Shown: positions 14,118-28,891 of the stretch, piece by piece
Position numbering within the stretch: position 1 is the first letter of the stretch
Layout of the letters: each line of letters starts with the position of its first letter
From: an uncultured Synergistota bacterium
Lineage (GTDB): Bacteria > Synergistota > JAGHAJ01
Length of the DNA: 64,000 nucleotides
Direction of reading: 5' to 3'
Assembly: GCA_964559865.1 (NCBI GenBank)
Contig: CAZLJD010000041.1
Coordinates: forward strand, 10,343-74,342
The notes under the pieces: model-generated
What the model saw: the letters and a program-made list of their open reading frames with translations, nothing else
Told to the model about the DNA's origin: nothing
Database searches by the model: none
Translations under genes and position numbers: made by a program

Positions 14118-15305
14118 ATGAAGCAACATATAAGAATACTCCACACTGCAGATTGGCATGTGGGACTTGAGTCTTGGAAGGCAGACATCCCAACTGACAG
14201 AACAGAAGAGATAAAAGACGCACTTCAATTCATGCTCCAGTACGCCCAAAACAATAATATTGACCTTATTATCATATCTGGAGACATCACGGAGCACAGA
14301 ACGTCACCAAGTGCAGTAGAACACCAAATAGTGCTACACTACCTGAACGAATTTTCAGCAGTAGCACCAGTAGTTGTCGTTACTGGCAACCACGATTGGG
14401 TAGGTCTGCCACAGTTAGATATATTTTCGAAGAAAACTAACATCCACCTCATAAATAGATTTTCAAATCCAAACGGTTCACCAGCATCAAGGACACTTCT
14501 CATAAAAGAGCAGAAAGTAAAGGTATTTGGCCTACCTTACTTCGATGTTCGGAATCTTATAAAAAAGTACATAGAAGAATTGTCCAACACAAGTATGGAC
14601 ATGCTAAAAATACACACATCCAAGATAGAGGAAGCATGCGAACCTGATGCGTGGAACATACTCTCTGCGCACATAGCAATAGAAGGTATAAAGTATAGAA
14701 ACTACATAGAAGATTCCTTAGAATTCAGCATAAACCCTAAACTGCTACCCACAGTAGATTACATTGCATTAGGGCACATACACTCCCAAATGCGTATATC
14801 GGAAGCACCAACCACAACATGGTTTTCTGGTGCCATAATTCAGAACGACTTTGGAGAAGAACAAAATCGTGTGGGATTCCTCATAGTAGACTTAGAAGAG
14901 GGGAAAAACCCACAGGTTCAACCAGTTGAAACACCCCACAAAAAGCTAAAAAGTATAAATGTTACATTAAACACAAACATGGAAAATTGCCTTAAAGAAA
15001 TAGAAGAAAAAGCCAACATACCCGAGGACTACCTGAGGATCACACTAAGGGTTAATCACATTCAAGATCTTCCGCCACTATGGATGTCAAGGATAAGGAA
15101 CATAAGCAACAAGATCGTAAAGGTAAATGTAGAAGTGGATAAAAAGGAAGATACCATAAACATATCCGGGATAAAAGAAAAGGCAAAGAACATAAAAGAG
15201 CTATTTGAGGAGTATATTGAAAAGACAGAAAATCTTACTGAGGAGGAGAAAGAAGCCATAATAAACTACTTCACTACCATATACGAAGAGGTAAAGGAGA
15301 CATGA
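14118..15305 (+). CDS. sbcD: Exonuclease SbcD (Mre11-type calcineurin-like phosphoesterase)
   Basis: IRILHTADWHVG, IISGDITEH and VTGNHDW motifs. Confidence 0.9.
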   Translation: MKQHIRILHTADWHVGLESWKADIPTDRTEEIKDALQFMLQYAQNNNIDLIIISGDITEHRTSPSAVEHQIVLHYLNEFSAVAPVVVVTGNHDWVGLPQLDIFSKKTNIHLINRFSNPNGSPASRTLLIKEQKVKVFGLPYFDVRNLIKKYIEELSNTSMDMLKIHTSKIEEACEPDAWNILSAHIAIEGIKYRNYIEDSLEFSINPKLLPTVDYIALGHIHSQMRISEAPTTTWFSGAIIQNDFGEEQNRVGFLIVDLEEGKNPQVQPVETPHKKLKSINVTLNTNMENCLKEIEEKANIPEDYLRITLRVNHIQDLPPLWMSRIRNISNKIVKVNVEVDKKEDTINISGIKEKAKNIKELFEEYIEKTENLTEEEKEAIINYFTTIYEEVKET

Positions 15306-17767
15306 GGCCTGAGAGGTTAAAAATAAGAAACTTTCTCGGTATAGTAGAAGCAGACATAAAATTCACAGATAGGAACGTATTTGCCATATTAGGAGATAAC
15401 GGTGCTGGTAAGTCCAGCATATTGGAAGCAATGTACTTTGCACTATTTGGAGAGACACTCCGATTCGGAGGAAAGGAAAAGAGATCTGCCATAAATAGAC
15501 ACTCTACTGAGGAAAAGCCAAAAGCAATCGTAGAGTTTACATTTTCGAACGCAAGTAGCAAATACAGGATAAAGAGGGTGATCTACGCAAGCAAACAATC
15601 AACCACCTCGATACTCGAGAAACTGTCTCCTATGAATACAACTTTTACAAGAGATATAGACAAAGAGATAAGGAAACTCATACAGGTAGACAAAGAGATA
15701 TTCAAAAAAACCATCCTTCTACCGCAAGGAGAGATGACGGGGTTTATATCGAGCAGAAAGGCAGAAACCGTGAAGAACATACTAACAGGCATATTCGGTA
15801 TAAGCACATTATCAGAGATCAAGAAGATTGTTTCACAAAAGCACAGTGAAGTAAAAGGCAAATATGAAGAAAAACAATCAAGAGTAGAAGCACTAAGCAC
15901 AATAGGAGGAAGGATACTCGAAGACGCATTAAACGAAAGCAAATCTCGTATAAAAGAGGCAGAGAGAGAGGCAAAAAGGTTAAAAGAAGCAATAAACAAA
16001 TTAAACCAAGAAATACAAACCACCATTAACCTTCTTGCTACTCGAAAGAGGATCCAAGAAAAAGAAGCAAAAATAAGACAAAAAGAGGCAGAAATCAAAG
16101 AGCTCTCAGAAAGGGTGAAGGAAGACGAACTAATCGAGAAAATACGAACTATAAAGCCATACTACGAAATACTTGAAGAAAAGGGGAAAAGGATAAATGA
16201 TGTTAGAAAAGCAATAAAGGAAACAACAGAAAAAATAGAAGAACTGGAGAGAAACAAATCAGAAATCGAAAAAAGACTCCAAAAAATCAAAGAAAGGCTG
16301 AACACATACGAATTGTGCAGACCTTTACATAAACAGTTCACAGAACTTCTACAAGCTATCAAGACAAACAAGACAAACAAAGGAAAGATAGAACATTCGC
16401 TCTGGAAGGAACAAAAAGAAGCCGAAAGCCTCAAATTAGAGTTAACAAGGCTGATTGAAAAGAAAAAAGATCTGCCATATTCCGAAAGAGAGCTACTTAT
16501 TATGAAACTAAAAAAGGATCTACAAGTGGGGGATAAATGTCCCATTTGCGGAAACACCATAGAAAACCTCGAAGCACACAGAAACCATATAGATACAGAG
16601 ACGCTAAAGACCGCCATGGAATTAGAAACAAACATAGAGAAGCTCAAACAAGAAATACAATCCTATAAAAAAGTTATTCTATCCTTAGAGGAGCAAGCAA
16701 ACAATCTATCATTAGAGATAACAAGACAGGAAGAAGAACTAAAAGGGTTGCAAGACGAAATAGAAAAAAAGACCGGGATCCTGGCAAAGCAATTTCAAGA
16801 AAACTTAGAGAAACTAACCAAGCAGAAAAACGCATATGAAAATGCTTACATCAGGGCAGAAACTACATTGGAAAACCTGAAAAAAACAGCAGAGGAATAC
16901 CAAAAAGCACTCCAAACATTCATCAATGAGCACGAGAAAGAGAAATTGAGATTCGACAGTAAATTCAAGCAAGCAGGCATTGACCAAGATACATTTCTAA
17001 AATACAAGGATAGGGAACCAACAGATGCAAAAAAGAGGGTTCAACAACTACAAACAGAAATCCAGCAATTAAAAACAGACATAGCATCAGAAAAAAGTTT
17101 AGTTGACACAGAAACTCCTATCTCTGAGGTAGAAAGGTTGCTCAAACAAAGAGAAGATGAAAAAAGCGAAAAGGAAACAAAGTTAGAAGAGGTAGCAAAA
17201 CTTCAAGGCAGTCTAAGAAAAGAGATCGAAAATATTCAAAACAGAATAGAAGAACTTGAAGAGCTAAAAGAACAGGTAAAAAAGGTGGAAAGAGAGTACA
17301 TCACAACAAGAAAGTTAAACTACTATCTTGAGAGCAATAGATTCCCTGCATATGTATCAGACTACTACCTCAACGCCATAGTGGAGAGGGCGAACCACAT
17401 ACTTTTCAGGTTTTTTAGCGGCAAATACACACTAAGTACCCAGAACAGTGAACTAAGAATAATAGACAAAAACCTGCCTGATAATGATGTCTCCATAGAC
17501 AGCCTTTCGGGGGGAGAAAAAGTACTCGTATCAATGGCTATTGCGATGGCCATAACTGAGCTTACAACAAATCACATAGACATGTTATTTATAGACGAGG
17601 GTTTTTCTCCCTTAGACAATAACAACATTCAAGAAGTCGCAAAAGAGATACAGTTACTCGAAAGCACAAACAAGGTCATAGGTATAGTTACACATAATCA
17701 GGACTTCGCCGAGCAGTTCAACCACATACTAAAAGTGGAAAATGGGAGGGTAGAATGGCTAAGATAG
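15302..17767 (+). CDS. sbcC: Exonuclease SbcC (Rad50-type SMC ATPase with CxxC zinc hook)
   Basis: N-terminal Walker A GDNGAGKSS. Long coiled coil with a central hook DKCPICGN. C-terminal signature LSGGEK and Walker B LFIDEGF. Confidence 0.9.
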   Translation: MRPERLKIRNFLGIVEADIKFTDRNVFAILGDNGAGKSSILEAMYFALFGETLRFGGKEKRSAINRHSTEEKPKAIVEFTFSNASSKYRIKRVIYASKQSTTSILEKLSPMNTTFTRDIDKEIRKLIQVDKEIFKKTILLPQGEMTGFISSRKAETVKNILTGIFGISTLSEIKKIVSQKHSEVKGKYEEKQSRVEALSTIGGRILEDALNESKSRIKEAEREAKRLKEAINKLNQEIQTTINLLATRKRIQEKEAKIRQKEAEIKELSERVKEDELIEKIRTIKPYYEILEEKGKRINDVRKAIKETTEKIEELERNKSEIEKRLQKIKERLNTYELCRPLHKQFTELLQAIKTNKTNKGKIEHSLWKEQKEAESLKLELTRLIEKKKDLPYSERELLIMKLKKDLQVGDKCPICGNTIENLEAHRNHIDTETLKTAMELETNIEKLKQEIQSYKKVILSLEEQANNLSLEITRQEEELKGLQDEIEKKTGILAKQFQENLEKLTKQKNAYENAYIRAETTLENLKKTAEEYQKALQTFINEHEKEKLRFDSKFKQAGIDQDTFLKYKDREPTDAKKRVQQLQTEIQQLKTDIASEKSLVDTETPISEVERLLKQREDEKSEKETKLEEVAKLQGSLRKEIENIQNRIEELEELKEQVKKVEREYITTRKLNYYLESNRFPAYVSDYYLNAIVERANHILFRFFSGKYTLSTQNSELRIIDKNLPDNDVSIDSLSGGEKVLVSMAIAMAITELTTNHIDMLFIDEGFSPLDNNNIQEVAKEIQLLESTNKVIGIVTHNQDFAEQFNHILKVENGRVEWLR

Positions 17768-18849
17768 ACCCACGTGAATTTATAAAAGAGCTAAAGCCAC
17801 ACGCAGATTGGGGCATAGAACACATACAATCGGTAGAGGAATTGGAAAGACAAGAAGAGGAAAAGATACATCCAAAAGTTATAACAGACAAAGACATCAA
17901 TGAAACGGAGATCTCATTAGATTCATGGAATAAATGGAAAGAGTCATACAAACCCCGTACCTTGTTCAAACCAGAGTCAGTAGTGTTTATAGACGGAAGG
18001 ATGCGTGTACACAGTAGGTTTATCCTGCATGACAGAAACCCTGCTATCATAGGAGAAACTATAGCTGGTGGTATCATCCTAAAAGGAGGAAAACTCTTTC
18101 TTGACTTCTCAAGCAACAAGCCACCAAAGATAATGAGGGTGCTCACTCTACCAGTGCAAGAAAGAGAAAGAGCAAAATCCATGGGCCTCAATGAACCCAT
18201 TCAAATACCCATCATATCCACCAACAGGTCCATAGAGCTTCACATAGTCTCATCAGATACAAAGGCATCAGAATCAGAAAGGGCATACTCCGCCCTGTTA
18301 GAAACAATGAGACTACTCGAAAGAGAGGTAGTAAACCACTACTTCTCAGAATCCAATCACTTTATAATCAAAGACGGCACACTGAGGCCGCCAGACAGAG
18401 AATTTATAAAAGGTAGGGGCCCTATCGGGCTAATAAAACGGATACACCAAGAAGAGATACCACCTGACTTCTTTGAAAGATTTATATACATGCTGGAAAG
18501 AGGTGAAAGAACCCCTTTCTTCTGCTACCGTATCTCGGAAAAACACACAACGATAAGAGTCATATCTTACATGAGGATAGCAGAAAAATTCCCAAGTGAA
18601 CACCCCATAAGGGGAATAGTAAAAGTAGAGTTATTGTCAGATGAAAATAGTATAGATAATAGGGAAAAAGAGGAAATAGCAGAAGCACTCGACTTTGTCA
18701 GCAGCTTGCTGCCAAAACTCACAAAGATACTGCCCATCCCACGATCTCCAGAAAATATATTTCCCATAATGTCGCTGGAAGATGCGCTTAGTAATTTCTT
18801 TCTTTCGTCTGATGTCGTAAAAACATCTTTTGAGAGGTGGTTAGCATAA
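17755..18849 (+). CDS. nurA: NurA-family 5'-3' nuclease (RNase-H-like fold)
   Basis: DG motifs VVFIDGRMRV and FIIKDGTL, 364 aa. Sits between sbcC and herA with 13-nt overlaps on both sides. Confidence 0.6.
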   Translation: MAKIDPREFIKELKPHADWGIEHIQSVEELERQEEEKIHPKVITDKDINETEISLDSWNKWKESYKPRTLFKPESVVFIDGRMRVHSRFILHDRNPAIIGETIAGGIILKGGKLFLDFSSNKPPKIMRVLTLPVQERERAKSMGLNEPIQIPIISTNRSIELHIVSSDTKASESERAYSALLETMRLLEREVVNHYFSESNHFIIKDGTLRPPDREFIKGRGPIGLIKRIHQEEIPPDFFERFIYMLERGERTPFFCYRISEKHTTIRVISYMRIAEKFPSEHPIRGIVKVELLSDENSIDNREKEEIAEALDFVSSLLPKLTKILPIPRSPENIFPIMSLEDALSNFFLSSDVVKTSFERWLA

Positions 18850-20774
18850 TGAAACCCATAGGAACCGTTACGGGTATAAACCCGATAACGCCATATGAAT
18901 TCTATGTAAGGCTAAAAGTAGAGAACGGAAAACCCATCTACATGTTGCAGATGGACGAGATAGTCAAAGCCGAGTATGAATATAAAAGGTTTGGTAAACT
19001 CAGGATATACGGGGTAGTAGTAGAAAACACTTGCAGGTGGGACCAAAATGACATTACAGGATACAAGGAAGATATCATAGCCTCTGGTGGCATGATAGGA
19101 ATACCAATATACTTAGCAAAAGTAGCAACCACGAGAATAATGAAATACATTAATGGAAGATGGATCGAAGATGAAATCTCGGTACCACCTCCCGCTGGAA
19201 CAGAGGTAGAACCAGTGGAAGAAGACGAAACAGACATCTCTCTTGCATTTGACAATCTGAAAGAAAAAGGTAGAGCCCTTCCTATAGGAGTCCTAACAAA
19301 TGGAAGCGTTGCATACCTCGACACAGATTACATACTTGGCAACAACGGAGCACACATAAATGTATCAGGCCTATCCGGTGTAGCAGCAAAAACATCTTAC
19401 ACAACATTCCTCATCTACAGCATGTTAAACAGCACCTCCGTAACGAAGGAACTGGCATCCTCGAGATTCATCATTTTCAACGTAAAGGGAGAAGGACTAC
19501 TCTTTCTGGACAGATGGAACAAGGAGTGGAAAGAAAAAGAAAGGACAGAAGACGAAGACTTCAAGAAATGGTGCGAAATGTTCAACAGGATGGGAATCAG
19601 ACCTAGCGTTTTTAAGAATGTGGAGTTTTACTCACCAAGGGGAAAGCTAAAGAAACCAGATGTGAATTACAGAGTAGACGGCAAAGTGAAAATATTTGGA
19701 TGGGATGCACTGGATGTTGTTACACTGGGACTCATCGAGTTCTTGTTTGACCCTTCTGAGCTTTCTGAAAATGTGAACATACAGCTTACCGTATCCGCAC
19801 TCTCAGAAATATTAGAAAGAAATTACTCCACACTCAAAAACGAGGTATTAAGAAAACTGAGAAAGTCTTCCAAAGATGAACCCAATGAAGGTGACAGCAG
19901 GGATAAACCCTTCCCATTTATAGATGAGATCGGATACGATCTCGACGGCCTCACAGAAGACCAGAAAGTAAGAGCATACTTGCAGGCATGCAGAACAGAA
20001 CCTAAAAAGATCTTAGAAGCTTATGGAATTCCTCCAACTATAAATGCCCTTGCAAACCTTCTAAAAGAAGAGAAAATAAAAGACGAGTTAAGCGAAGAAA
20101 TGATACAAGACAAGACAATAGGAGCAGTCTACAGGAGAATAAAAGCAGCACAAAAGCTTGATATATGGAAAGTATGGGTAGACATGAGCACAGAATCCAT
20201 GTTCTTCACACCATCAAAATATGAGGAACCCTCTTATCACATAAACTGGGATAGAAAAGGAGGAATAACGGTAATAGACATCTCCAAGCTGCGACACAGA
20301 GCGCAGATATTCGTTGTAGGCTCCATACTGAAACAGGTACTGCAAAAGAAAGAAGCGGGGTTGATAAAGGAACCCGTGTTTATATACCTCGATGAATTGA
20401 ATAAGTATGCTCCTCGCAGTGGAGGTGGACCCCTGGGAAGCATATTCAGAGACATTGCAGAAAGGGGAAGATCTTTTAAGATCATACTCATTGGAGCAGA
20501 GCAAACAGCATCTGAAGTAGACTACAGGGTGATAACACAGGCATCTACCACGGTAGTAGGCAGGCAAAAATTGGCAGAGCTGAAAAAAGACGAATATGCG
20601 CATCTGGTTGGCGCTCAAAAGGAGAAAGCAGCACATCTCGTACAAGGAGAAGTAATCATAGACCAACCATTTCTAAGAGTACCACTGCTGGTAAAATTCC
20701 CTCTAACACCGTGGTCAACGAGAGAGGACTCAGAGGTACCAGAGAGACAGGAGAATTTCGATGACTTCTTGTGA
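18837..20774 (+). CDS. herA: HerA-family hexameric DNA translocase/helicase (HAS-barrel + RecA-like ATPase)
   Basis: N-terminal barrel, LPIGVL...SVAYLDTDYILGNNGAHINVSGLSGVAAKTS, Walker B VFIYLDELNKYAP, and a long helical insertion. Confidence 0.7.
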   Translation: MVSIMKPIGTVTGINPITPYEFYVRLKVENGKPIYMLQMDEIVKAEYEYKRFGKLRIYGVVVENTCRWDQNDITGYKEDIIASGGMIGIPIYLAKVATTRIMKYINGRWIEDEISVPPPAGTEVEPVEEDETDISLAFDNLKEKGRALPIGVLTNGSVAYLDTDYILGNNGAHINVSGLSGVAAKTSYTTFLIYSMLNSTSVTKELASSRFIIFNVKGEGLLFLDRWNKEWKEKERTEDEDFKKWCEMFNRMGIRPSVFKNVEFYSPRGKLKKPDVNYRVDGKVKIFGWDALDVVTLGLIEFLFDPSELSENVNIQLTVSALSEILERNYSTLKNEVLRKLRKSSKDEPNEGDSRDKPFPFIDEIGYDLDGLTEDQKVRAYLQACRTEPKKILEAYGIPPTINALANLLKEEKIKDELSEEMIQDKTIGAVYRRIKAAQKLDIWKVWVDMSTESMFFTPSKYEEPSYHINWDRKGGITVIDISKLRHRAQIFVVGSILKQVLQKKEAGLIKEPVFIYLDELNKYAPRSGGGPLGSIFRDIAERGRSFKIILIGAEQTASEVDYRVITQASTTVVGRQKLAELKKDEYAHLVGAQKEKAAHLVQGEVIIDQPFLRVPLLVKFPLTPWSTREDSEVPERQENFDDFL

Positions 20775-21522
20775 TCTAACCATAGATGTAAGTCTCTTGC
20801 CCAACAGAATATCAAATTCAGACATAGCTATAGGAGTAGATGTGCTTAGAGCAAGTTCGAGCATAGTAACTGCATTGGCTAACGGTGCGGAATGTGTAAT
20901 AATCACTTCATCTGTAAAGAAGGCAAAAAAACTCAAAAAAAGCATACCAAATTCCATACTCGCAGGCGAAAGAAACACAGTAAAGATAAAAGGATTCGAT
21001 GTAGGAAACTCACCATCAGAGATGTCTAAATGCAACTTAAGAGACAAAACTGTAATACTCACAACTACTAATGGAACAAAACTTCTAAAAAAGTTAAAAG
21101 AGCACTCAAAAGTAGTCCTCACAGCATCTGTGTTAAATCTATCCTCCATAGCAAATACAATAAGAGAAGCGCATCACTCAAAGGGGATAAAAAGCGTACT
21201 TATCGCCTGTGCTGGTGTAAAGGGAAACACATCCATAGATGACATAGCTATAGCAGGTTTACTAATAAAGGAAATAACCAAACTTACAAAAGCAAAGCTA
21301 ACAGACTCAGCAGAAATCTCAGTAAGGCTCTTCAACTCTTATAGGTCCATAAAGGAGATCTTTCTAAACTCTGAAAGTGGTAGGAGGGTCATCGCTGCAG
21401 GGTACAGCGATGACATAGACTTCTGTGCACAGATGAATCTCTATCCCCTATCACCATTACTCTTTGAAGACACATACCTGTATCTCAAAACCTTCAAGGG
21501 GTTAAGCGCTCTGCCCTTATAG
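20761..21522 (+). CDS. 2-phosphosulfolactate phosphatase (ComB) family protein
   Basis: IGVDVLRASSSIVTALANGAECVI motif. 14-nt overlap with the end of herA. Confidence 0.6.
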   Translation: MTSCDLTIDVSLLPNRISNSDIAIGVDVLRASSSIVTALANGAECVIITSSVKKAKKLKKSIPNSILAGERNTVKIKGFDVGNSPSEMSKCNLRDKTVILTTTNGTKLLKKLKEHSKVVLTASVLNLSSIANTIREAHHSKGIKSVLIACAGVKGNTSIDDIAIAGLLIKEITKLTKAKLTDSAEISVRLFNSYRSIKEIFLNSESGRRVIAAGYSDDIDFCAQMNLYPLSPLLFEDTYLYLKTFKGLSALPL

Positions 21523-22787
21523 TAAACCTCAAAGAAGAGGTGTGGTCCAGTAGACCTACCAGTACTCCCTACGCTACCTATCTTCTGCCCCCTGTAAACC
21601 CACTGCCCCTTTCTAACATATATCCTATGCAAGTGCCCATAAGTGGTTATCCACCCACCACCATGGTCTATGATGACAACTCTTCCATAACCACCCATCC
21701 AACCACTATAAACCACTTTTCCCCTATCTGCTGCAACAACAGGTCTTCCGCGATAAGTAGCAATGTCTATACCCGGATGGAACTCCCACCTATACCTCCT
21801 GAAAGGGTTTCTCCTCCATCCAAAGCCAGACGTTATCTTACCACTAGTCGGCCATATAAACTTTCCCACACCAACATGCCTTGAAAGTACAGACACCTTC
21901 TTTAAAAAACCACTCATCTTCGTCCTATAGCCCTTGCTGTGTATCCTGCTAATTATAACACCGTTAGAAAACCTCAAGCCCGGACTCACCGGTATAAGAA
22001 CAAGCTGTCCTATCTGCATGGTCCTCGGAGACTTTATGTGATTCAGAGCAAGCAGTTTGGAAAAGCTTACATGAAACCTCCTTGCTATAATCCAGGGATT
22101 ATCCCCGGGTCTAAGTCTGTAGCGAATGTACTGTACCTTCTTGGGGGTATAACCCTTGGAGGTTATCCTTATCCTCATACCGGGCCTCAAACGGTTTGGA
22201 TTAACTATATTATTCACAACCATCAGCTGTCTGACACTTACGTGGTAACGCATCGCCACATCCCAAAGCGTATCCCCCTTCTTGAGTATATACACTACAG
22301 CCTTTTGCTTAGCTATAGGCTTTTTCGTAACTCTTCCAGCCTTAGGTACATGACGAGCATTTTTCGCCCGAACATGCAAAGGTAGAACTATCACCTTTCC
22401 CGGCTTCAGACACCTGGAGTTACTCACATGGTTTACCTTTAAGAGCTGTCTTAGTGATACACCATACTTACGGGCAATATCCCATAAGGTATCACCCGGT
22501 TTCATGGTATAAGTCTTTACGCCCTTTACATTGCTCACCTTTGCTGCTTTCCTTTCCACTTTGACCTCAGTTCCCGGTATCTTTATCCTACGGCCTGGCC
22601 TAAGTATGGTAGAGCTACTTAAGCCATTTACTTTCATCAATTTCCGCAGATTGACATTAAACTTATGCGCAATCTCCCAGAGCGTATCCCCCTTTTTTAC
22701 AACATATACCCTATAACCTGCAGCAAACCCCACCCCTATTCCTGCAAGAAGCAGAAACACCACAAATACAAGCAAATACCTCCTCAA
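21441..22787 (-). CDS. Peptidoglycan hydrolase: four LysM repeats plus a C-terminal M23 metallopeptidase domain
   Basis: Repeated KKGDTLWEIA/DIA...VS...L...N LysM units, and HPGIDIA...GHLH M23 motifs. Confidence 0.9.
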   Translation of the reverse strand: MRRYLLVFVVFLLLAGIGVGFAAGYRVYVVKKGDTLWEIAHKFNVNLRKLMKVNGLSSSTILRPGRRIKIPGTEVKVERKAAKVSNVKGVKTYTMKPGDTLWDIARKYGVSLRQLLKVNHVSNSRCLKPGKVIVLPLHVRAKNARHVPKAGRVTKKPIAKQKAVVYILKKGDTLWDVAMRYHVSVRQLMVVNNIVNPNRLRPGMRIRITSKGYTPKKVQYIRYRLRPGDNPWIIARRFHVSFSKLLALNHIKSPRTMQIGQLVLIPVSPGLRFSNGVIISRIHSKGYRTKMSGFLKKVSVLSRHVGVGKFIWPTSGKITSGFGWRRNPFRRYRWEFHPGIDIATYRGRPVVAADRGKVVYSGWMGGYGRVVIIDHGGGWITTYGHLHRIYVRKGQWVYRGQKIGSVGSTGRSTGPHLFFEVYYKGRALNPLKVLRYRYVSSKSNGDRG

Positions 22788-24164: not shown

Positions 24165-24962
24165 TTACTCCAACCTTAGGTAAACCGTCCTACCCCGATA
24201 CCTCAGACTATCAATATTGTTGAAGTTGTACCGCAAATCATTTACGAAAGAAGATATATATCCCCTATAGCTAACATAAATCTTGGCATTACCAGAGCTG
24301 TAGTCTGCCACAACTACTTTCCTCACAGAGGGTATGTGTTGCAGTCTGTCTACTATCTCATTCACCTGACTAAAACTCTCTATCCCGGATACTCTCAATA
24401 TGTACTTGTGCAATCTCCTGCTAGAGCCACCTGCAGGCACAAGTCCCACAAGATATTTGCCAAGCATCGTAGCCGCTTTGAGAAGAGCCTTACTCCTTGC
24501 CTCACCTCTGGTATATCCTATAGCTTTTGACACAAAAGACTTTGCAAAGATAAAACGACCATCTTTAGTTCTGTAAGCCTTTGCAGATATGGAAGCTGTG
24601 CCTGTATACAAACCAAACTCATTTTGTCTTGCCCTGTGCATAACAGCTCTGCCCTTTAAAAAAACATCTATCCTGTAAAGACTACCCAGCTTCATTATGC
24701 CGTCTACATCGCCCTTTAGCGCAAGAATAGCAGCCTTGCTCCTGCGTATACGATTTATCTGATTTTTGTCAACCACCTTGAAACCGGCATTCATCAGTAT
24801 CTCTATAATCCTTGCTTCAGCTGAACCAATCGTGCTATTGTACCCAAAACTGTAACCCTGATATATAATCACAGCTATCCGCTGGTTTCTGGTTATGGCA
24901 AAAGCAATAGAAGAAGAAACCAGCACAAAGAGCAGACAAAACAGCAGCACCCTTCTCATCAC
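24165..24962 (-). CDS. Exported protein with a CsgG-N/TolB-N-like alpha/beta domain (uncharacterized)
   Basis: Signal peptide MMRRVLLFCLLFVLVSSSIAFA. Carries the pattern RIAVII...SAEARIIEILMNAGFKVVDKNQI...GRA, also present in the neighbouring CsgG-like and FlgT-like genes. Confidence 0.45.
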   Translation of the reverse strand: MMRRVLLFCLLFVLVSSSIAFAITRNQRIAVIIYQGYSFGYNSTIGSAEARIIEILMNAGFKVVDKNQINRIRRSKAAILALKGDVDGIMKLGSLYRIDVFLKGRAVMHRARQNEFGLYTGTASISAKAYRTKDGRFIFAKSFVSKAIGYTRGEARSKALLKAATMLGKYLVGLVPAGGSSRRLHKYILRVSGIESFSQVNEIVDRLQHIPSVRKVVVADYSSGNAKIYVSYRGYISSFVNDLRYNFNNIDSLRYRGRTVYLRLE

Positions 24963-26332
24963 AAAGCACCTACCTTCTTTAGCTTTCTATTTATGGGGAC
25001 ATAATTCGGATTTATTTCATGGCCAATCTTCCAGTACTTAATAGCACTCTTCTTGTTTCCTATTTCGTAGTAAACCTCCCCTATCCAGTAGTAAGCAAGA
25101 TAGTCGCCCTTGTACAGCTTTATTGCCTCTTTGAGTATTTTTATAGAGCGCGCATACCTCCTGTGAGAATAGTTCCACCACCACTGTTTATGTATCCTTT
25201 TGAGGTTCTCCTTTAATTCGAAAGACACAGGGAAATAATCTATCACCTTTATAGAGTCAGAAGTGTTAGCAATATCGCTCTTGGGCAAAACCTTAGGAGT
25301 AGCAGTCGAAGGAGGAGAGCTCTCACTTGGAGCAGATGGAGAAGGTTTGTTTTCCGTTCTCTTACTTTTATTAAAGAGTTTGGATATGTCACGTGCAGAC
25401 CTTGGGCTTATAGTTATCTTTTCCACATCCTTTGCAGATATTGGCACAACTTTGTCCCCTCTCTTCAATGGGCCACCCTTTATAACTTTACCAATAGAAT
25501 AGCGGGCATGCGTTTCAACGATTTTTATTACACCAAGGTAAAGCTTTTCAACTCCCAAGATCTCTCCGTTAACACCCTTTATAGGTGCCCCCTCCACATA
25601 AGCAGCAAAGTAATCACCCTTTTCAACCTCTCCCGTAGCAGAACCTACATCTATGTAAACGGTATTCATTCCTCCTCTTACAACATGGATACCCCCTGTA
25701 GCCTCCGCATTTTCCATGTAGAACTTTCTTACTATCTTCTTTATGCACTTGTACGTTGCTGCAGCAAGTATTCCCTGCACTTGACCTTGTGCATAAACAG
25801 CTCCCCTAAAGGCCACTCCACCTATAGTATGCGACGCTTCGCCAGTCTCCCTTGCCACCAGCATAATTTCACCCGTCTCTACATTTATCATTCTCACATC
25901 GAGGGTAACATACGCCTTCTTTTCTCCTATCGCTATACCACCTATACCCGGTATAGGCAACACCCCTCCGCTCTGCTTGAATGTAAACTGCGTTATACTA
26001 CCTGTGATAATCGCCTGAACACCAAGGAGCTTACCCAAGCGAACAGCAGTAGCACTATCCACTAGGCCAGAAGCTGCAAGACGATGTTCTCTTGCTATAG
26101 CTTGGATCCTCGATCTCTCGACTATAGAGTACATGTGTGTTTTGTAAAGCTCAGTAGTAAACATGTCTGTTATTGCTCTCCTCACAGCATCCGTTACAGG
26201 TGTAGGACCAGAGGCGTTGTTCTGAAAATCAACTATAGCAACACGCATCTTGGAAGAGGCAACAGCGGGAGCAATCGCAACAAACAGAAGCACAGACACT
26301 ATCATACTTACAGACATCACCTTTTTAAACAT
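24959..26332 (-). CDS. CsgG-family (curli-type secretion pore) protein with Pro/Ser linker and C-terminal TPR
   Basis: Signal peptide. KMRVAIVDFQN...IVERSRIQAI...VTLDVRMINVETGEIMLVARETGEA aligns with E. coli CsgG (VNLRVVNVSTGEIL). C-terminal YYWIGEVYYEIGNKKSAIKYW is TPR-like. Confidence 0.8.
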   Translation of the reverse strand: MFKKVMSVSMIVSVLLFVAIAPAVASSKMRVAIVDFQNNASGPTPVTDAVRRAITDMFTTELYKTHMYSIVERSRIQAIAREHRLAASGLVDSATAVRLGKLLGVQAIITGSITQFTFKQSGGVLPIPGIGGIAIGEKKAYVTLDVRMINVETGEIMLVARETGEASHTIGGVAFRGAVYAQGQVQGILAAATYKCIKKIVRKFYMENAEATGGIHVVRGGMNTVYIDVGSATGEVEKGDYFAAYVEGAPIKGVNGEILGVEKLYLGVIKIVETHARYSIGKVIKGGPLKRGDKVVPISAKDVEKITISPRSARDISKLFNKSKRTENKPSPSAPSESSPPSTATPKVLPKSDIANTSDSIKVIDYFPVSFELKENLKRIHKQWWWNYSHRRYARSIKILKEAIKLYKGDYLAYYWIGEVYYEIGNKKSAIKYWKIGHEINPNYVPINRKLKKVGAL

Positions 26333-26348
26333 GTAAACTTGCCTCCCT

Positions 26349-26792
26349 TCACTTTATCTTCACACAATACAGTATTATCTTCTTGAGCGGTATAGCAACC
26401 CTCACATAGTAATAGTCATCCTGTATCCACCCTTTTAGCAGGTGTTCCCTCACTATCTTTCCAGAAACAGTTATTGATACAGCATTAGAAGGTACTCCAT
26501 ACTTCAAATTATATAAGACAAGCAGTGCGTTCCTCCTTGCATCTACAATTGCTGCCCTTCTCGCCAAAAGCTTAGACTGACCAGACGATGATCCCCCATA
26601 CTGCGAAAGAGGTGCCCTACCAAGAACATAAAGCAACTTACTATCCCAGTCCACCTTACCCCACGAAAACTTTTGCAGAAAATCATTATCCCAGTTTAAC
26701 TGTTGGAGTTCATCAACTGTAAGGGCATATGCAACACAATTCATCCCTATCAAAACAATAGCAAATACACTTACCCAAGAAACCATCTTCAT
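26349..26792 (-). CDS. LPP20-family (FlgP-like) exported protein
   Basis: Signal peptide plus the LPP20 motif SKLLARRAAIVDARRNALLVLYN. Confidence 0.65.
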   Translation of the reverse strand: MKMVSWVSVFAIVLIGMNCVAYALTVDELQQLNWDNDFLQKFSWGKVDWDSKLLYVLGRAPLSQYGGSSSGQSKLLARRAAIVDARRNALLVLYNLKYGVPSNAVSITVSGKIVREHLLKGWIQDDYYYVRVAIPLKKIILYCVKIK

Positions 26793-26804
26793 AACTTCCT
26801 CACC

Positions 26805-27968
26805 TCATTTTCCCTTAGGCTTACACACCACCTTGCCTGCGGAAAAGCCTGTAACTTCATAACCAAGTTTTTCCAGTTTTATTGCGAGGAATTCCGCACT
26901 ACCTTTTATATTTACATCAAACTCTGCATTCCCCCCTACAAAGCTCCTCTGATAAACCGCAACCACATTCTCTATGCGAGAGACTGCATCCTTAAAACTC
27001 ATCGCCTCAGAAAATGTTACACCCTCAACCCTAACCCTTATAGTTCTACCCGGTATAGCAGAAGGACCTCCACCAGCAAGGGCATAAGCCACCTTATACA
27101 TCATGGATCTCCCTGCCTTATACCCCAACCACTTAAACACCTTCACAGCTCCATCTTCCAAGCTCATACCTCTCTGCCTCCCAGACACCGACAGACTATC
27201 AACTATCTGCGCCGTCTGAGAAACAACAGCTCTCACCTGCAACTGCCCTTTTACTCCATATACTACCTGCCCATACAACTTCTGCTTGGTATATGCAAAA
27301 GCCATTGCCCTCCCATATACCACAATATCTGCATTGTGCTTTACAGCCAACTCTTTAGCAAGTGAAAGGTCACCAGACATTGCCTTTAAAGCTGCTAATC
27401 TCTTCTCGTTTTTAGATATCTGCTCAGGGTCTACCAACTGATAACCTGCCTTCTGGAAAACTGCAAGCATGGCAGATTCAACCGTAGAGACAAACGGTTT
27501 CTCCTTTCCTATCCTCTCATCTACAAGCAGCATAACAACAGGATTCCCCAACGCGTCTATAACAACAGGGCCAAGTACATCGTTCAGCCTCTTCATGGAG
27601 ACCGTAGCCTTTACTTTCAAGTGAAGTATCCCATCAGGTGTTTTCCATTTTCTCAACACTCTGTAGCCAGTAACAAGTCCCTTGCTTTTTGCAAACACCT
27701 TGTCTCTAACAACCTCAAAGTTCTTCATCTCGGTAACACTATGTATTAAGACACCCATGCCTTTCTCTATAGCATTCCTAAAGGCATCCAGCTTCGCTTC
27801 GTCAAATGCTCTAGACACATTACCATCTACTATAGCTGCAGCTCCCTCTACGATAACAGTAACAGGAGAAGGGTTTTTGGCAAACCCTACTCCCGGTGTA
27901 CTGACCAAAAGAAAAAACACGGCAAGGAAAACAAACAGTCTACTTCTCGCTTTCATTCCCGATCTCAC
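26805..27968 (-). CDS. Three-domain exported protein: LPP20-like N-domain plus CsgG-N/TolB-N-like middle domain (FlgT-like architecture)
   Basis: Signal peptide. N-domain VIVEGAAAIVDGNVSRAFDEAKLDAFRNAIEKG. Middle domain VMLLVDERIG...AGYQLVDPEQI...ADIVVYGRA. 387 aa, similar in size to Vibrio FlgT. Confidence 0.5.
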   Translation of the reverse strand: MRSGMKARSRLFVFLAVFFLLVSTPGVGFAKNPSPVTVIVEGAAAIVDGNVSRAFDEAKLDAFRNAIEKGMGVLIHSVTEMKNFEVVRDKVFAKSKGLVTGYRVLRKWKTPDGILHLKVKATVSMKRLNDVLGPVVIDALGNPVVMLLVDERIGKEKPFVSTVESAMLAVFQKAGYQLVDPEQISKNEKRLAALKAMSGDLSLAKELAVKHNADIVVYGRAMAFAYTKQKLYGQVVYGVKGQLQVRAVVSQTAQIVDSLSVSGRQRGMSLEDGAVKVFKWLGYKAGRSMMYKVAYALAGGGPSAIPGRTIRVRVEGVTFSEAMSFKDAVSRIENVVAVYQRSFVGGNAEFDVNIKGSAEFLAIKLEKLGYEVTGFSAGKVVCKPKGK

Positions 27969-28891
27969 CTCTTCACTACTATAACCCTACATCTGCTTCT
28001 GAAATCAAACCTGTTGTGTCTTATTATCTGTGCATACTTCATTGGTATCACCATGTCGACATTGTTCGGGGATACAGTCCTTATCACTTTAACAACAAGT
28101 GGACGAGTCGCAACACGTGGGTCTCCCTTCGCATAGTTTATATTGGTCTGATAAGCCACCAATCCGCTTGCCATGAACCTTTCCCTATCAACAAAGTTAA
28201 TGGAATATACCTCTTTACCCTTCGGATCAAGCACTCTACAAAGTGTAGCAGGTATCAACGGTACACTTCTTGCATCCAATACCAATCCAGAGTAATTATA
28301 TTTTGCCTTAGGCATCTCATGAGGGCGACGAGAAGGTATTTTCTTTATCTTAGCAACCACATCCCTAATGCCTTTCAAGTATATTCTCCCTGTAACAGTG
28401 TAAATCCCTTCATTTGGATCCCACTCACTCTTCACTATTCTTACACCCTTTATCCATCCATGAACTTCACTCTTAACCCAATCTTGAGCCATAAAATTAT
28501 TCATAACCGTCCTACTGTCAATCCTTACACCCTTTATTGCTTCAAGTAGATTCCTCTGCAGATCCAATATAGCACCTCTTTTGGCAAGCAATACCCCTTG
28601 GGCTTTATTCTTTACATTGCTCGGAGGAACTGCAGAACCGGTAGCTTCTATGTAGTCCTTCGTCCAGTTTATCACCGCATTTGGACCCTTTTCTATAACA
28701 GGAGGTGCTTCCTTTGGAGGAGGTGAAGCCTCTGAAACCTGATTTGGAGGTGGCACCTGACTATTAGAATTTATCATACCCCCTCCTGTACCTCCAATCA
28801 TACCCGAGGAGCTGCCCGATGCCGCTAAACCAATAGGCAGCAAGGTAAACAAAAGCAGCCCTACCATAAGTCCTACTATTATCCTTCTCAT
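27965..28891 (-). CDS. Exported LPP20-domain protein with a Gly/Ser/Pro-rich N-terminal linker
   Basis: Signal peptide, low-complexity SGSSSGMIGGTGGGM...PPPKEAPP, then the LPP20 motif KAQGVLLAKRGAILDLQRNLLEAIKG. RBS AAAGGAGGGG. Confidence 0.55.
   Translation of the reverse strand: MRRIIVGLMVGLLLFTLLPIGLAASGSSSGMIGGTGGGMINSNSQVPPPNQVSEASPPPKEAPPVIEKGPNAVINWTKDYIEATGSAVPPSNVKNKAQGVLLAKRGAILDLQRNLLEAIKGVRIDSRTVMNNFMAQDWVKSEVHGWIKGVRIVKSEWDPNEGIYTVTGRIYLKGIRDVVAKIKKIPSRRPHEMPKAKYNYSGLVLDARSVPLIPATLCRVLDPKGKEVYSINFVDRERFMASGLVAYQTNINYAKGDPRVATRPLVVKVIRTVSPNNVDMVIPMKYAQIIRHNRFDFRSRCRVIVVKR

Follow-up and report, generated by a model that had tools for sequence, protein, structure and literature searches.

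Which functions are encoded by the five neighbouring genes at 24165-28891, minus strand, in this contig of an uncultured Synergistota bacterium, and to what degree are their products related to each other? In the source the proteins are named only "hypothetical protein", apart from one FlgT-N-domain label. We refer to the whole 64,000-nucleotide stretch that was analysed as the window, and to the genes in their reading direction as P5 (the first gene), P4, P3, P2 and P1, see Table 1. Throughout the region the genes are separated by at most 16 nucleotides or overlap by 4 nucleotides; they are therefore one tightly packed operon.

Three modules are shared among the five proteins

Orthologues of all five proteins, collected in 71 metagenome loci and in several long contigs, were aligned. 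The domains were compared using HHalign on these alignments, with 20 column-shuffled controls for each pair.

The cluster holds at least six domain types, and three of them are common to several proteins: an alpha/beta module (P1, P2 and the middle domain of P4, P4-M), an SHS2 module (P3 and the N-terminal modules of P5 and P4, P5-N and P4-N) and a C-terminal module that we call C' (P4 and P1). In the alpha/beta class, P1 matches P4-M with an HHalign probability of 99.0% (E 6e-18, 147 columns) and P2 with 67.7% (E 4.9e-5 over 82 columns; the score of 35 compares with at most 21 in the controls), while P2 and P4-M compared directly give 3.8% (E 0.011; score 21.8, best control 16.9). Among the SHS2 modules the values are 99.1% (E 5e-19) for P3 and P5-N, 98.3% (E 2.4e-14) for P4-N and P5-N, and 67.8% (E 4.9e-5) for P4-N and P3. 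The C' modules of P1 and P4 match with 97.7% (E 1.5e-12). Over nearly the full length, residues 23-262 of P1 align with 140-382 of P4 (99.5%, E 2.8e-23); judged from its sequence, P1 is P4 minus the N-domain.

All seven within-module comparisons, P2 against P4-M included, beat all 20 shuffled controls, whereas no cross-module pair rises above background. BLAST among the five proteins aligns P1 45-234 with P4 160-356 (E 3e-12), P1 5-155 with P2 10-166 (E 6e-6), P4 58-135 with P5 107-182 (E 4e-6) and P3 47-124 with P5 74-148 (E 1e-3).

In principle, the shared motif skeleton could be a chance likeness of amphipathic strand-helix patterns, without common ancestry. Single-sequence scans against Pfam and NCBIfam indeed give nothing significant for P1, P3 and P5, only P2 being clearly recognisable, and the direct match of P2 to P4-M is not significant by its probability. 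However, the other six within-module profile comparisons have E-values from 5e-19 to 4.9e-5, all seven pairs exceed controls that the cross-module pairs do not, and the independent fold matches of the P4 and P5 models agree, so we give a chance origin practically no credence. Chance resemblance was ruled out for five of the six within-class pairs; for P2 and P4-M the sequence match is weak, and kinship is supported by transitivity and fold.

An earlier note on this DNA had described two modules, in a cluster whose limits left P5 outside. The open reading frames (ORFs) of P1 and P4 lie where it placed them, the sequence strings it quoted are present in the translations, and its CsgG-like protein, our P2, is real. 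It rightly placed an alpha/beta module of TolB-N/CsgG/LpoB fold type in P1, P2 and the middle of P4; the type is given by the Pfam matches of P2 and the fold matches of the P4 model. The LPP20-type module does occur in three proteins (P3, P5 and P4-N), although these are not "three others", since P4 carries both modules. The motif A(D/K)IV.YGRA, described as recurring, is found literally in P4 only, P1 having RIDVFLKGRA and P2 VQAIITGSI at this place. The C' module had been overlooked, and the number of shared modules is three rather than two.

Relatives of the individual proteins

For P4, a homologue of 100% identity is deposited (P0001, 383 residues, with a start four codons later). The AlphaFold2 (AF2) model of P4 has a predicted local distance difference test (pLDDT) value of 82.5. 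When the PDB is searched with Foldseek, the top match is FlgT from the H-ring of Vibrio (8z5n_0, E 1.4e-10; 3w1e, E 1.1e-9; about 385 columns). P4 (387 residues) and FlgT (377) are similar in length and begin alike, with an SHS2 N-domain followed by a TolB-N-like M-domain; in the P4 model a linker helix joins the two. The N-, M- and C-domains of the model span residues 36-123, 144-298 and 308-384. The template modelling (TM) scores of this match are only 0.29-0.31, and the domain arrangement therefore differs from that of FlgT. The next matches of the M-domain are HpaA, GNA1162, PelC, CsgG, CT253, TolB and LptE; it thus matches the CsgG/LpoB/PelC/GNA1162/TolB-N fold group, to which P1 is linked through P4 and P2.

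At the sequence level, Pfam FlgT_N (PF16548) matches 16 of the 22 members of the P4 family (best E 2.7e-8), P4 of the window itself giving no match at E<=0.1. The N-domain part of the family profile finds FlgP chains of the Campylobacter (9hmf_C, 1.5e-6) and Vibrio (8z5n_2, 6e-4) motors. FlgT_M and FlgT_C match none of the 22 members, and the P4-family profile does not reach Vibrio FlgT at E<=10. As a single sequence, P4 has a partial match to NCBIfam LipL46 (1.9e-10).

The full-length Foldseek alignment also pairs the C-terminal domain of P4 with FlgT-C. This assignment was rejected, as predicted secondary structure and Pfam disagree with it. The C' domain of P4 is predicted to be mixed alpha/beta, while FlgT-C is a beta-roll (bioRxiv 10.1101/2020.05.29.123786), and the FlgT_C-like domain of this cluster sits in P2. 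The FlgT domain types are split over two proteins, N and M in P4 and M and C in P2, which is a stronger combinatorial reuse than the earlier note proposed.

P2 is above the Pfam thresholds for both CsgG (PF03783; 108.4 bits with a threshold of 20.8, E 4.1e-31) and LpoB (29.8 bits with a threshold of 22.3, E 6.3e-7), and it also matches TPR_2 (1.8e-6). CsgG and LpoB each match 21 of 21 orthologues. In the P2 family FlgT_M is found in 9 of 21 orthologues, and when the beta domain is used alone FlgT_C is found in 10 of 21 (best E 3.8e-4). The profile of the beta domain matches the FlgT_C-like domains of TsaP, the secretin-associated ring protein of the type IV pilus machine (3jc8, 5.4e-4), although P2 lacks the LysM domain of TsaP. 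A profile of the alpha/beta domain and the middle part aligns to residues 53-177 of CsgG chains (9e-7) and, colinearly, to residues 167-335 of FlgT at a sub-threshold E of 0.095. A glycine-rich segment of P2 aligns around the first (TM1) hairpin of CsgG and has a similar length. P2 differs from CsgG, the curli channel, by having no lipoprotein signal and no curli genes nearby, and by its added FlgT_C-like and TPR domains. In some orthologues, here variant B, the glycine-rich hairpin-like segment is deleted and the beta domain is replaced by TPR-like sequence.

For P5 the AF2 model reaches a pLDDT of 77.7 as a whole, and its C-domain exceeds 90. Its best Foldseek match is Tp0624 of Treponema pallidum (5jir_A, E 8.8e-11, 262 columns, TMq 0.49), followed by FlgP of C. 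jejuni (9hmf_A, E 9e-5, TMt 0.67), HP1454, Tip-alpha and Lpp20. The alignment to Tp0624 (5JIR) covers both domains of its D1-D2 tandem, with a sequence identity of 17-18%, and by its model P5 is a D1-D2 tandem of this type. Its authors called D2 a fold not characterised before, and in Treponema it is joined to an OmpA-like domain (PMC5104382); P5 lacks this D3, and the chain ends after the D2-like domain at residue 308. The C-domain of P5 has no significant HHalign match among the other domains of the cluster and is unique within the operon, while its SHS2 module is found with a domain hidden Markov model (HMM) at 7e-50.

The SHS2 core that P3, P4-N and P5-N have in common is that of the FlgP/LPP20 proteins (Campylobacter basal disk, Vibrio H-ring, H. 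pylori Lpp20), and the P3-family profile matches C. jejuni FlgP (9hmf_C, E 5.6e-6). Pfam LPP20 (PF02169) gives no match for P3, P4 or P5 at E<=1; across the families it is found in 0 of 28 P3 and 2 of 31 P5 sequences (best 0.0021). As in FlgP, P4-N and P5-N keep an insertion between the helix and the second strand, most of which is missing in P3. Drobnic et al. found that this insertion correlates with ring formation in the FlgP family (PMC12222027). The proteins also differ from FlgP/LPP20 in that lipobox-like motifs are nearly absent from the P3, P4 and P5 families and that the SHS2 module of P5 is fused to a second domain. Finally, Pfam CsgG is matched weakly in 7 of 26 members of the P1 family, whose profile finds no meaningful relative in the PDB by sequence.

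Since the N- and M-domains of P4 resemble FlgT, P5 resembles D1-D2 of Tp0624, and the CsgG plus FlgT_C combination of P2 recurs in a Bacillota metagenome-assembled genome (MAG), these three proteins are old architectures and not local inventions.

A core of three genes is conserved across phyla

The gene order P5-P4-P3-(P2)-P1 recurs throughout the Synergistota loci (about 70 metagenome loci), the closest relative being a Synergistetes MAG with 90% identity. Querying genome contigs with P4 alone brought up a single MAG locus, which is near-identical. In a Pyramidobacter MAG the system is present as two divergent operons.

The architectures were obtained by scanning all ORFs in the loci with the domain HMMs. 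P1 occurs with C' in 25 cases and without it in 14, and the CsgG-like protein with the beta domain and a long tail in 23, with the beta domain only in 13 and as alpha/beta domain only in 17. A tandem double C' is found in three P4 proteins (L059:2459-3973, L061:1153-2616 and L065:139-1557) and also in protein P0026. Five SHS2 modules are standalone, five others stand at the end of proteins of about 300-550 residues, and eight P5 proteins have long N-terminal extensions. These variants, seen per lineage, support the duplication and shuffling that the earlier note proposed.

Some further forms were observed in the same loci. Many P5 homologues have 420-540 residues (e.g. P0057, P0067, P0076 and L039:5197-6825), and the N-terminal extension of the long ones matches the coiled-coil-type Pfam families PF12072 and PF27881. 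In two loci (L002:5274-6935 and L009:4265-5929, minus strand) a divergent gene immediately upstream of the operon encodes a 553-residue protein whose last part is an SHS2 module of the P5 type (E about 1e-35). In L002 there is also a second CsgG plus beta-domain plus TPR protein, of 657 residues, about 2.1 kb beyond the operon. Further paralogues are thus present in some lineages.

The breadth of the P4 family depends on the search. A word-indexed search for relatives of P4 gave 33 matches, seemingly a small Synergistota family. An exhaustive profile search, on cluster representatives at 50% identity, gave 12,639 at E<=1e-3, of which 5,869 reach E<=1e-10 and 1,213 reach E<=1e-30. Over 150 matches are full-length with scores below 1e-61, and one such cluster is named from Bacillota MAGs.

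In one Bacillota MAG locus (L082, 63% guanine plus cytosine, GC) only the P5-like, the P4-like and the CsgG plus FlgT_C protein are found, all with signal peptides. The same trio of P5, P4 and CsgG-like protein is present in three other loci outside Synergistota (L083, L084 and L006), and the GC content of these ranges over 38-65%. The core trio of P5, P4 and the CsgG-like P2 is conserved across phyla. As P3 is most similar to P5-N and P1 is P4 without its N-domain, and from the gene content, we infer a three-gene core that was extended in Synergistota by P3, copied from an SHS2 module of the P5 type, and by P1, copied from P4 without the N-domain. P3 and P1 alone look like lineage-specific truncated duplicates.

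In one of these loci, a distant relative of the cluster with 65% GC, a 381-residue TPR+SLH protein is encoded between the P5-like and P4-like genes (L006:6859-8004). SLH domains bind cell-wall polymers, and this protein hints at wall anchoring in that lineage. In the Bacillota locus a DUF4384 plus PEGA protein is encoded about 1.7 kb downstream of the trio (L082:10093-10917), with an IMP dehydrogenase gene between; PEGA is a domain typically seen in surface proteins or in proteins associated with the S-layer.

Export and genomic setting

All five N-termini, read from the translations, consist of a basic and then a hydrophobic leader with an Ala-x-Ala-type site at its end, and none has a lipobox cysteine; that of P2 ends in ...APAVASSK. 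All five products are thus predicted to be Sec-exported non-lipoproteins. FlgT is likewise Sec-exported and not lipidated. Among the orthologues a lipobox-like motif is seen in 2 of 46 P3, 3 of 50 P5, 2 of 59 P4 and none of 36 long-form P2 proteins. For the most frequent architecture in every family the share is at most 3 of 50, and in the short forms it is 2 of 14 to 2 of 18 (short-form P2: 2 of 18).

A scan of the operon for promoters and terminators did no better than on shuffled sequence. A transporter gene lies upstream and divergent. Downstream, after a gap of 159 nucleotides, there is an M20 peptidase gene, and past it, 1.4 kb from the operon on the same strand, a gene whose 448-residue product combines an M23 peptidase domain with four LysM repeats; this LysM-M23 neighbour is not kept in the related loci examined. 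The other large ORFs of the window are housekeeping genes (V-ATPase, RecG, ribonucleotide reductase, TilS, Opp transporter).

Table 1. Positions of the genes and domains in the window. Residues are numbered within each protein.
Feature	Position	Strand	Residues	Description
P5	27965-28891	minus	308 aa	First gene of the operon; signal peptide, low-complexity Gly/Pro linker, SHS2 module, Tp0624-D2-like domain
P5 SHS2 module (P5-N)	28349-28681	minus	71-181	FlgP/LPP20 type; FlgP-type insertion between helix and second strand
P5 C-domain	27968-28303	minus	197-308	Like D2 of Tp0624
P4	26805-27968	minus	387 aa	Three-domain, FlgT-like (N, M, C')
P4 N-domain (P4-N)	27597-27863	minus	36-124	SHS2/FlgT_N/FlgP-like; strand, helix, helix, strand, strand
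P4 M-domain (P4-M)	27075-27548	minus	141-298	Alpha/beta, TolB-N/CsgG type
P4 C'-domain	26814-27056	minus	305-385	Predicted strand-helix-strand-strand-helix-strand-strand; common to P1
P3	26349-26792	minus	147 aa	Signal peptide and one minimal SHS2 module
P3 SHS2 module	26352-26675	minus	40-147	8 residues shorter than P5-N at the FlgP-type insertion (8-9 residues shorter between helix and next strand)
P2	24959-26332	minus	457 aa	Signal peptide, CsgG-type domain, FlgT_C/TsaP-type beta domain, Pro/Ser-rich linker, TPR region
P2 CsgG-type alpha/beta domain	25721-26251	minus	28-204	
P2 FlgT_C/TsaP-type beta domain	25424-25702	minus	211-303	
P2 TPR region	24986-25258	minus	about 359-449	Beyond the Pro/Ser-rich linker
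P1	24165-24962	minus	265 aa	Signal peptide, alpha/beta module, C' module
P1 alpha/beta module	24444-24890	minus	25-173	
P1 C' module	24174-24413	minus	184-263	
LysM-M23 peptidase gene	21441-22787	minus	448 aa	Past the M20 peptidase gene; four LysM repeats

A putative ring or scaffold in the outer periplasm

The five proteins probably form an uncharacterised ring or scaffold, not belonging to the flagellum, in the outer periplasm. While the homologies of the domains are demonstrated, assembly and function are inferred from analogy. CsgG and PelC are known to form rings. FlgP forms concentric rings (PMC12222027), and TsaP surrounds PilQ (bioRxiv 10.1101/2020.05.29.123786). Co-assembly is proposed because the solved relatives of four of the domains (FlgT, FlgP, CsgG, PelC and TsaP) form rings close to the outer membrane. 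As all of these form rings, the comparison that the earlier note made with multi-ring assemblies in which paralogues stack is reasonable as an analogy. The five exported proteins would then co-assemble into a hetero-oligomeric ring or scaffold with the CsgG-like oligomer at its centre. The TPR region, or the TPR+SLH protein in the distant relative, would be the docking or cell-wall-facing part, and the complex would most likely act in the cell envelope independently of the flagellum.

Several observations weigh against this proposal. The argument for co-assembly is one of operon structure and analogy only. CsgG, FlgP, FlgO, Lpp20, LpoB and PelC all reach the outer membrane by a lipid anchor; by lipobox reading and scanning none of the five proteins is lipidated, so their association with this membrane is only putative. 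The sequence link between P2 and P4-M is weak (E 0.011). Because variant-B orthologues are without the glycine-rich segment that aligns to the TM1 hairpin of CsgG, a pore cannot be a universal feature of the CsgG-like proteins here. In one Synergistota locus (L079:366-10237) P4-like and P3-like genes stand alone, with no P5, P2 or P1 near, 2.6 kb from the genes of a 775-residue flagellin and a Maf/MptE-like flagellin-modification protein.

The obvious alternative, FlgT and FlgP being flagellar proteins, is a motor collar: the operon would encode the Synergistota equivalent of the H-ring or basal disk, with FlgT-, FlgP- and FlgO-like rings around the LP-ring. In the H-ring 26 FlgT are found with 58 FlgP and FlgO (bioRxiv 10.64898/2025.12.02.691832; PMC13626733). 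The best structural match of P4, the FlgT_N matches in its family, the matches of the SHS2 modules to FlgP chains of two motors and the pair beside flagellin in L079 are all in line with such a role, and some Synergistota are motile by lateral flagella (PMC3035294). In the same phylum motility is patchy, and the genome paper of Aminobacterium colombiense reports no flagellar genes (PMC3035294). However, flagellin was found by tblastn in only 1 of about 85 loci (L079) and not in the window, and L079 is likewise the sole exception to the absence of flagellar Pfam families, none of which is present in the ten other labelled neighbourhoods. The system also occurs in a MAG of Pyramidobacter, a genus described as non-motile. 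Neither MotX/MotY nor other flagellar neighbours are seen at the operon; FlgP and FlgO are lipidated whereas these proteins are predicted not to be; and the C-domain of P4 is not FlgT_C-like, nor does the P4 profile reach Vibrio FlgT. We find a flagellar collar improbable.

Two further explanations overlap with the proposed ring or scaffold. P2 could be a CsgG-type outer-membrane secretion channel for an amyloid, adhesin or polysaccharide, with the other four proteins as periplasmic accessory factors. There are precedents for such factors in CsgE and CsgF for curli and PelC for PelB. The high CsgG score throughout the P2 family and the alignment to CsgG residues 53-177, including the segment near the first hairpin, would fit, and among the fold matches of P4-M are PelC and LptE, proteins that act as plugs of outer-membrane barrels or feed into them. 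We regard it as unlikely, since lipidation is a hallmark of CsgG and P2 has no lipobox, the hairpin-like segment is deleted in variant B, and neither a CsgA/B/E/F-like gene nor any other substrate candidate is conserved beside the operon, curli families (csgA/B/E/F) being absent from it and from the Pfam-labelled neighbourhoods. P2 also seems to be about 8 residues shorter at the constriction loop, which is a weak point. Alternatively, the proteins could be directed to the cell wall, as a tether or regulator associated with peptidoglycan in the manner of LpoB, Tp0624 or TsaP, positioning or linking wall and outer membrane without a discrete ring machine. The LpoB match in all 21 P2 orthologues, the similarity of P5 to the part of Tp0624 that carries a wall-binding domain of OmpA type in Treponema (PMC5104382), that of the P2 beta domain to TsaP, a LysM protein tying the secretin to the wall, the TPR+SLH protein of L006 and the LysM-M23 gene downstream all point in this direction. 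On the other hand, Pfam and NCBIfam scans find no wall-binding domain (LysM, OmpA, SLH, SPOR) in the five proteins, the LysM-M23 neighbour is not conserved, and the LpoB match overlaps the CsgG match and reflects the shared fold. We consider such a tether unlikely. No pilus or secretin genes lie near the operon.

Other observations in the window

Over the whole window (1-64000) the GC skew is strongly negative over minus-strand genes and changes sign to positive in the block of plus-strand genes between about 6 and 20 kb; it tracks the coding strand, the coding strands being purine-rich. Two overlapping ORFs of 364 and 645 residues (17755-20774, plus strand), without any Pfam match at 1e-5, lie directly 3' of the gene of an 821-residue SbcC/SMC-like ATPase (15302-17767). 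The 645-residue product has a Walker-B-like stretch, IYLDELNKY, and the pair may be an uncharacterised DNA-repair or defence module.

Implications

The domains described here are of known kinds, familiar from flagellar and pilus accessory rings and from the curli channel. The conserved, widespread and apparently non-flagellar gene set that they build is not described in the literature searched. In it, the domain types of FlgT, FlgP, CsgG and TsaP occur together without flagellar linkage. The proteins are unannotated, in spite of 12,639 cluster representatives for the P4 family alone. The operon is also a clean natural example of how a family diversifies by domain gain, loss and duplication inside a single operon.

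If the proteins assemble as the analogy suggests, they would make up a new structure of the cell envelope in double-membraned lineages that have been little studied. As a tentative idea, which we consider possible though not likely, the trio may be a non-flagellar machine of the envelope, so far undescribed and widespread among double-membraned bacteria other than Proteobacteria (Synergistota, possibly double-membraned Bacillota MAGs, and others). Its non-lipidated rings would lie in the periplasm below the outer membrane, and it would represent the pool of ring-forming domains from which the flagellar H-ring and basal disk (FlgT, FlgP) and the pilus protein TsaP were recruited. If true, this would give a concrete starting point for studying the origin of the flagellar accessory rings.

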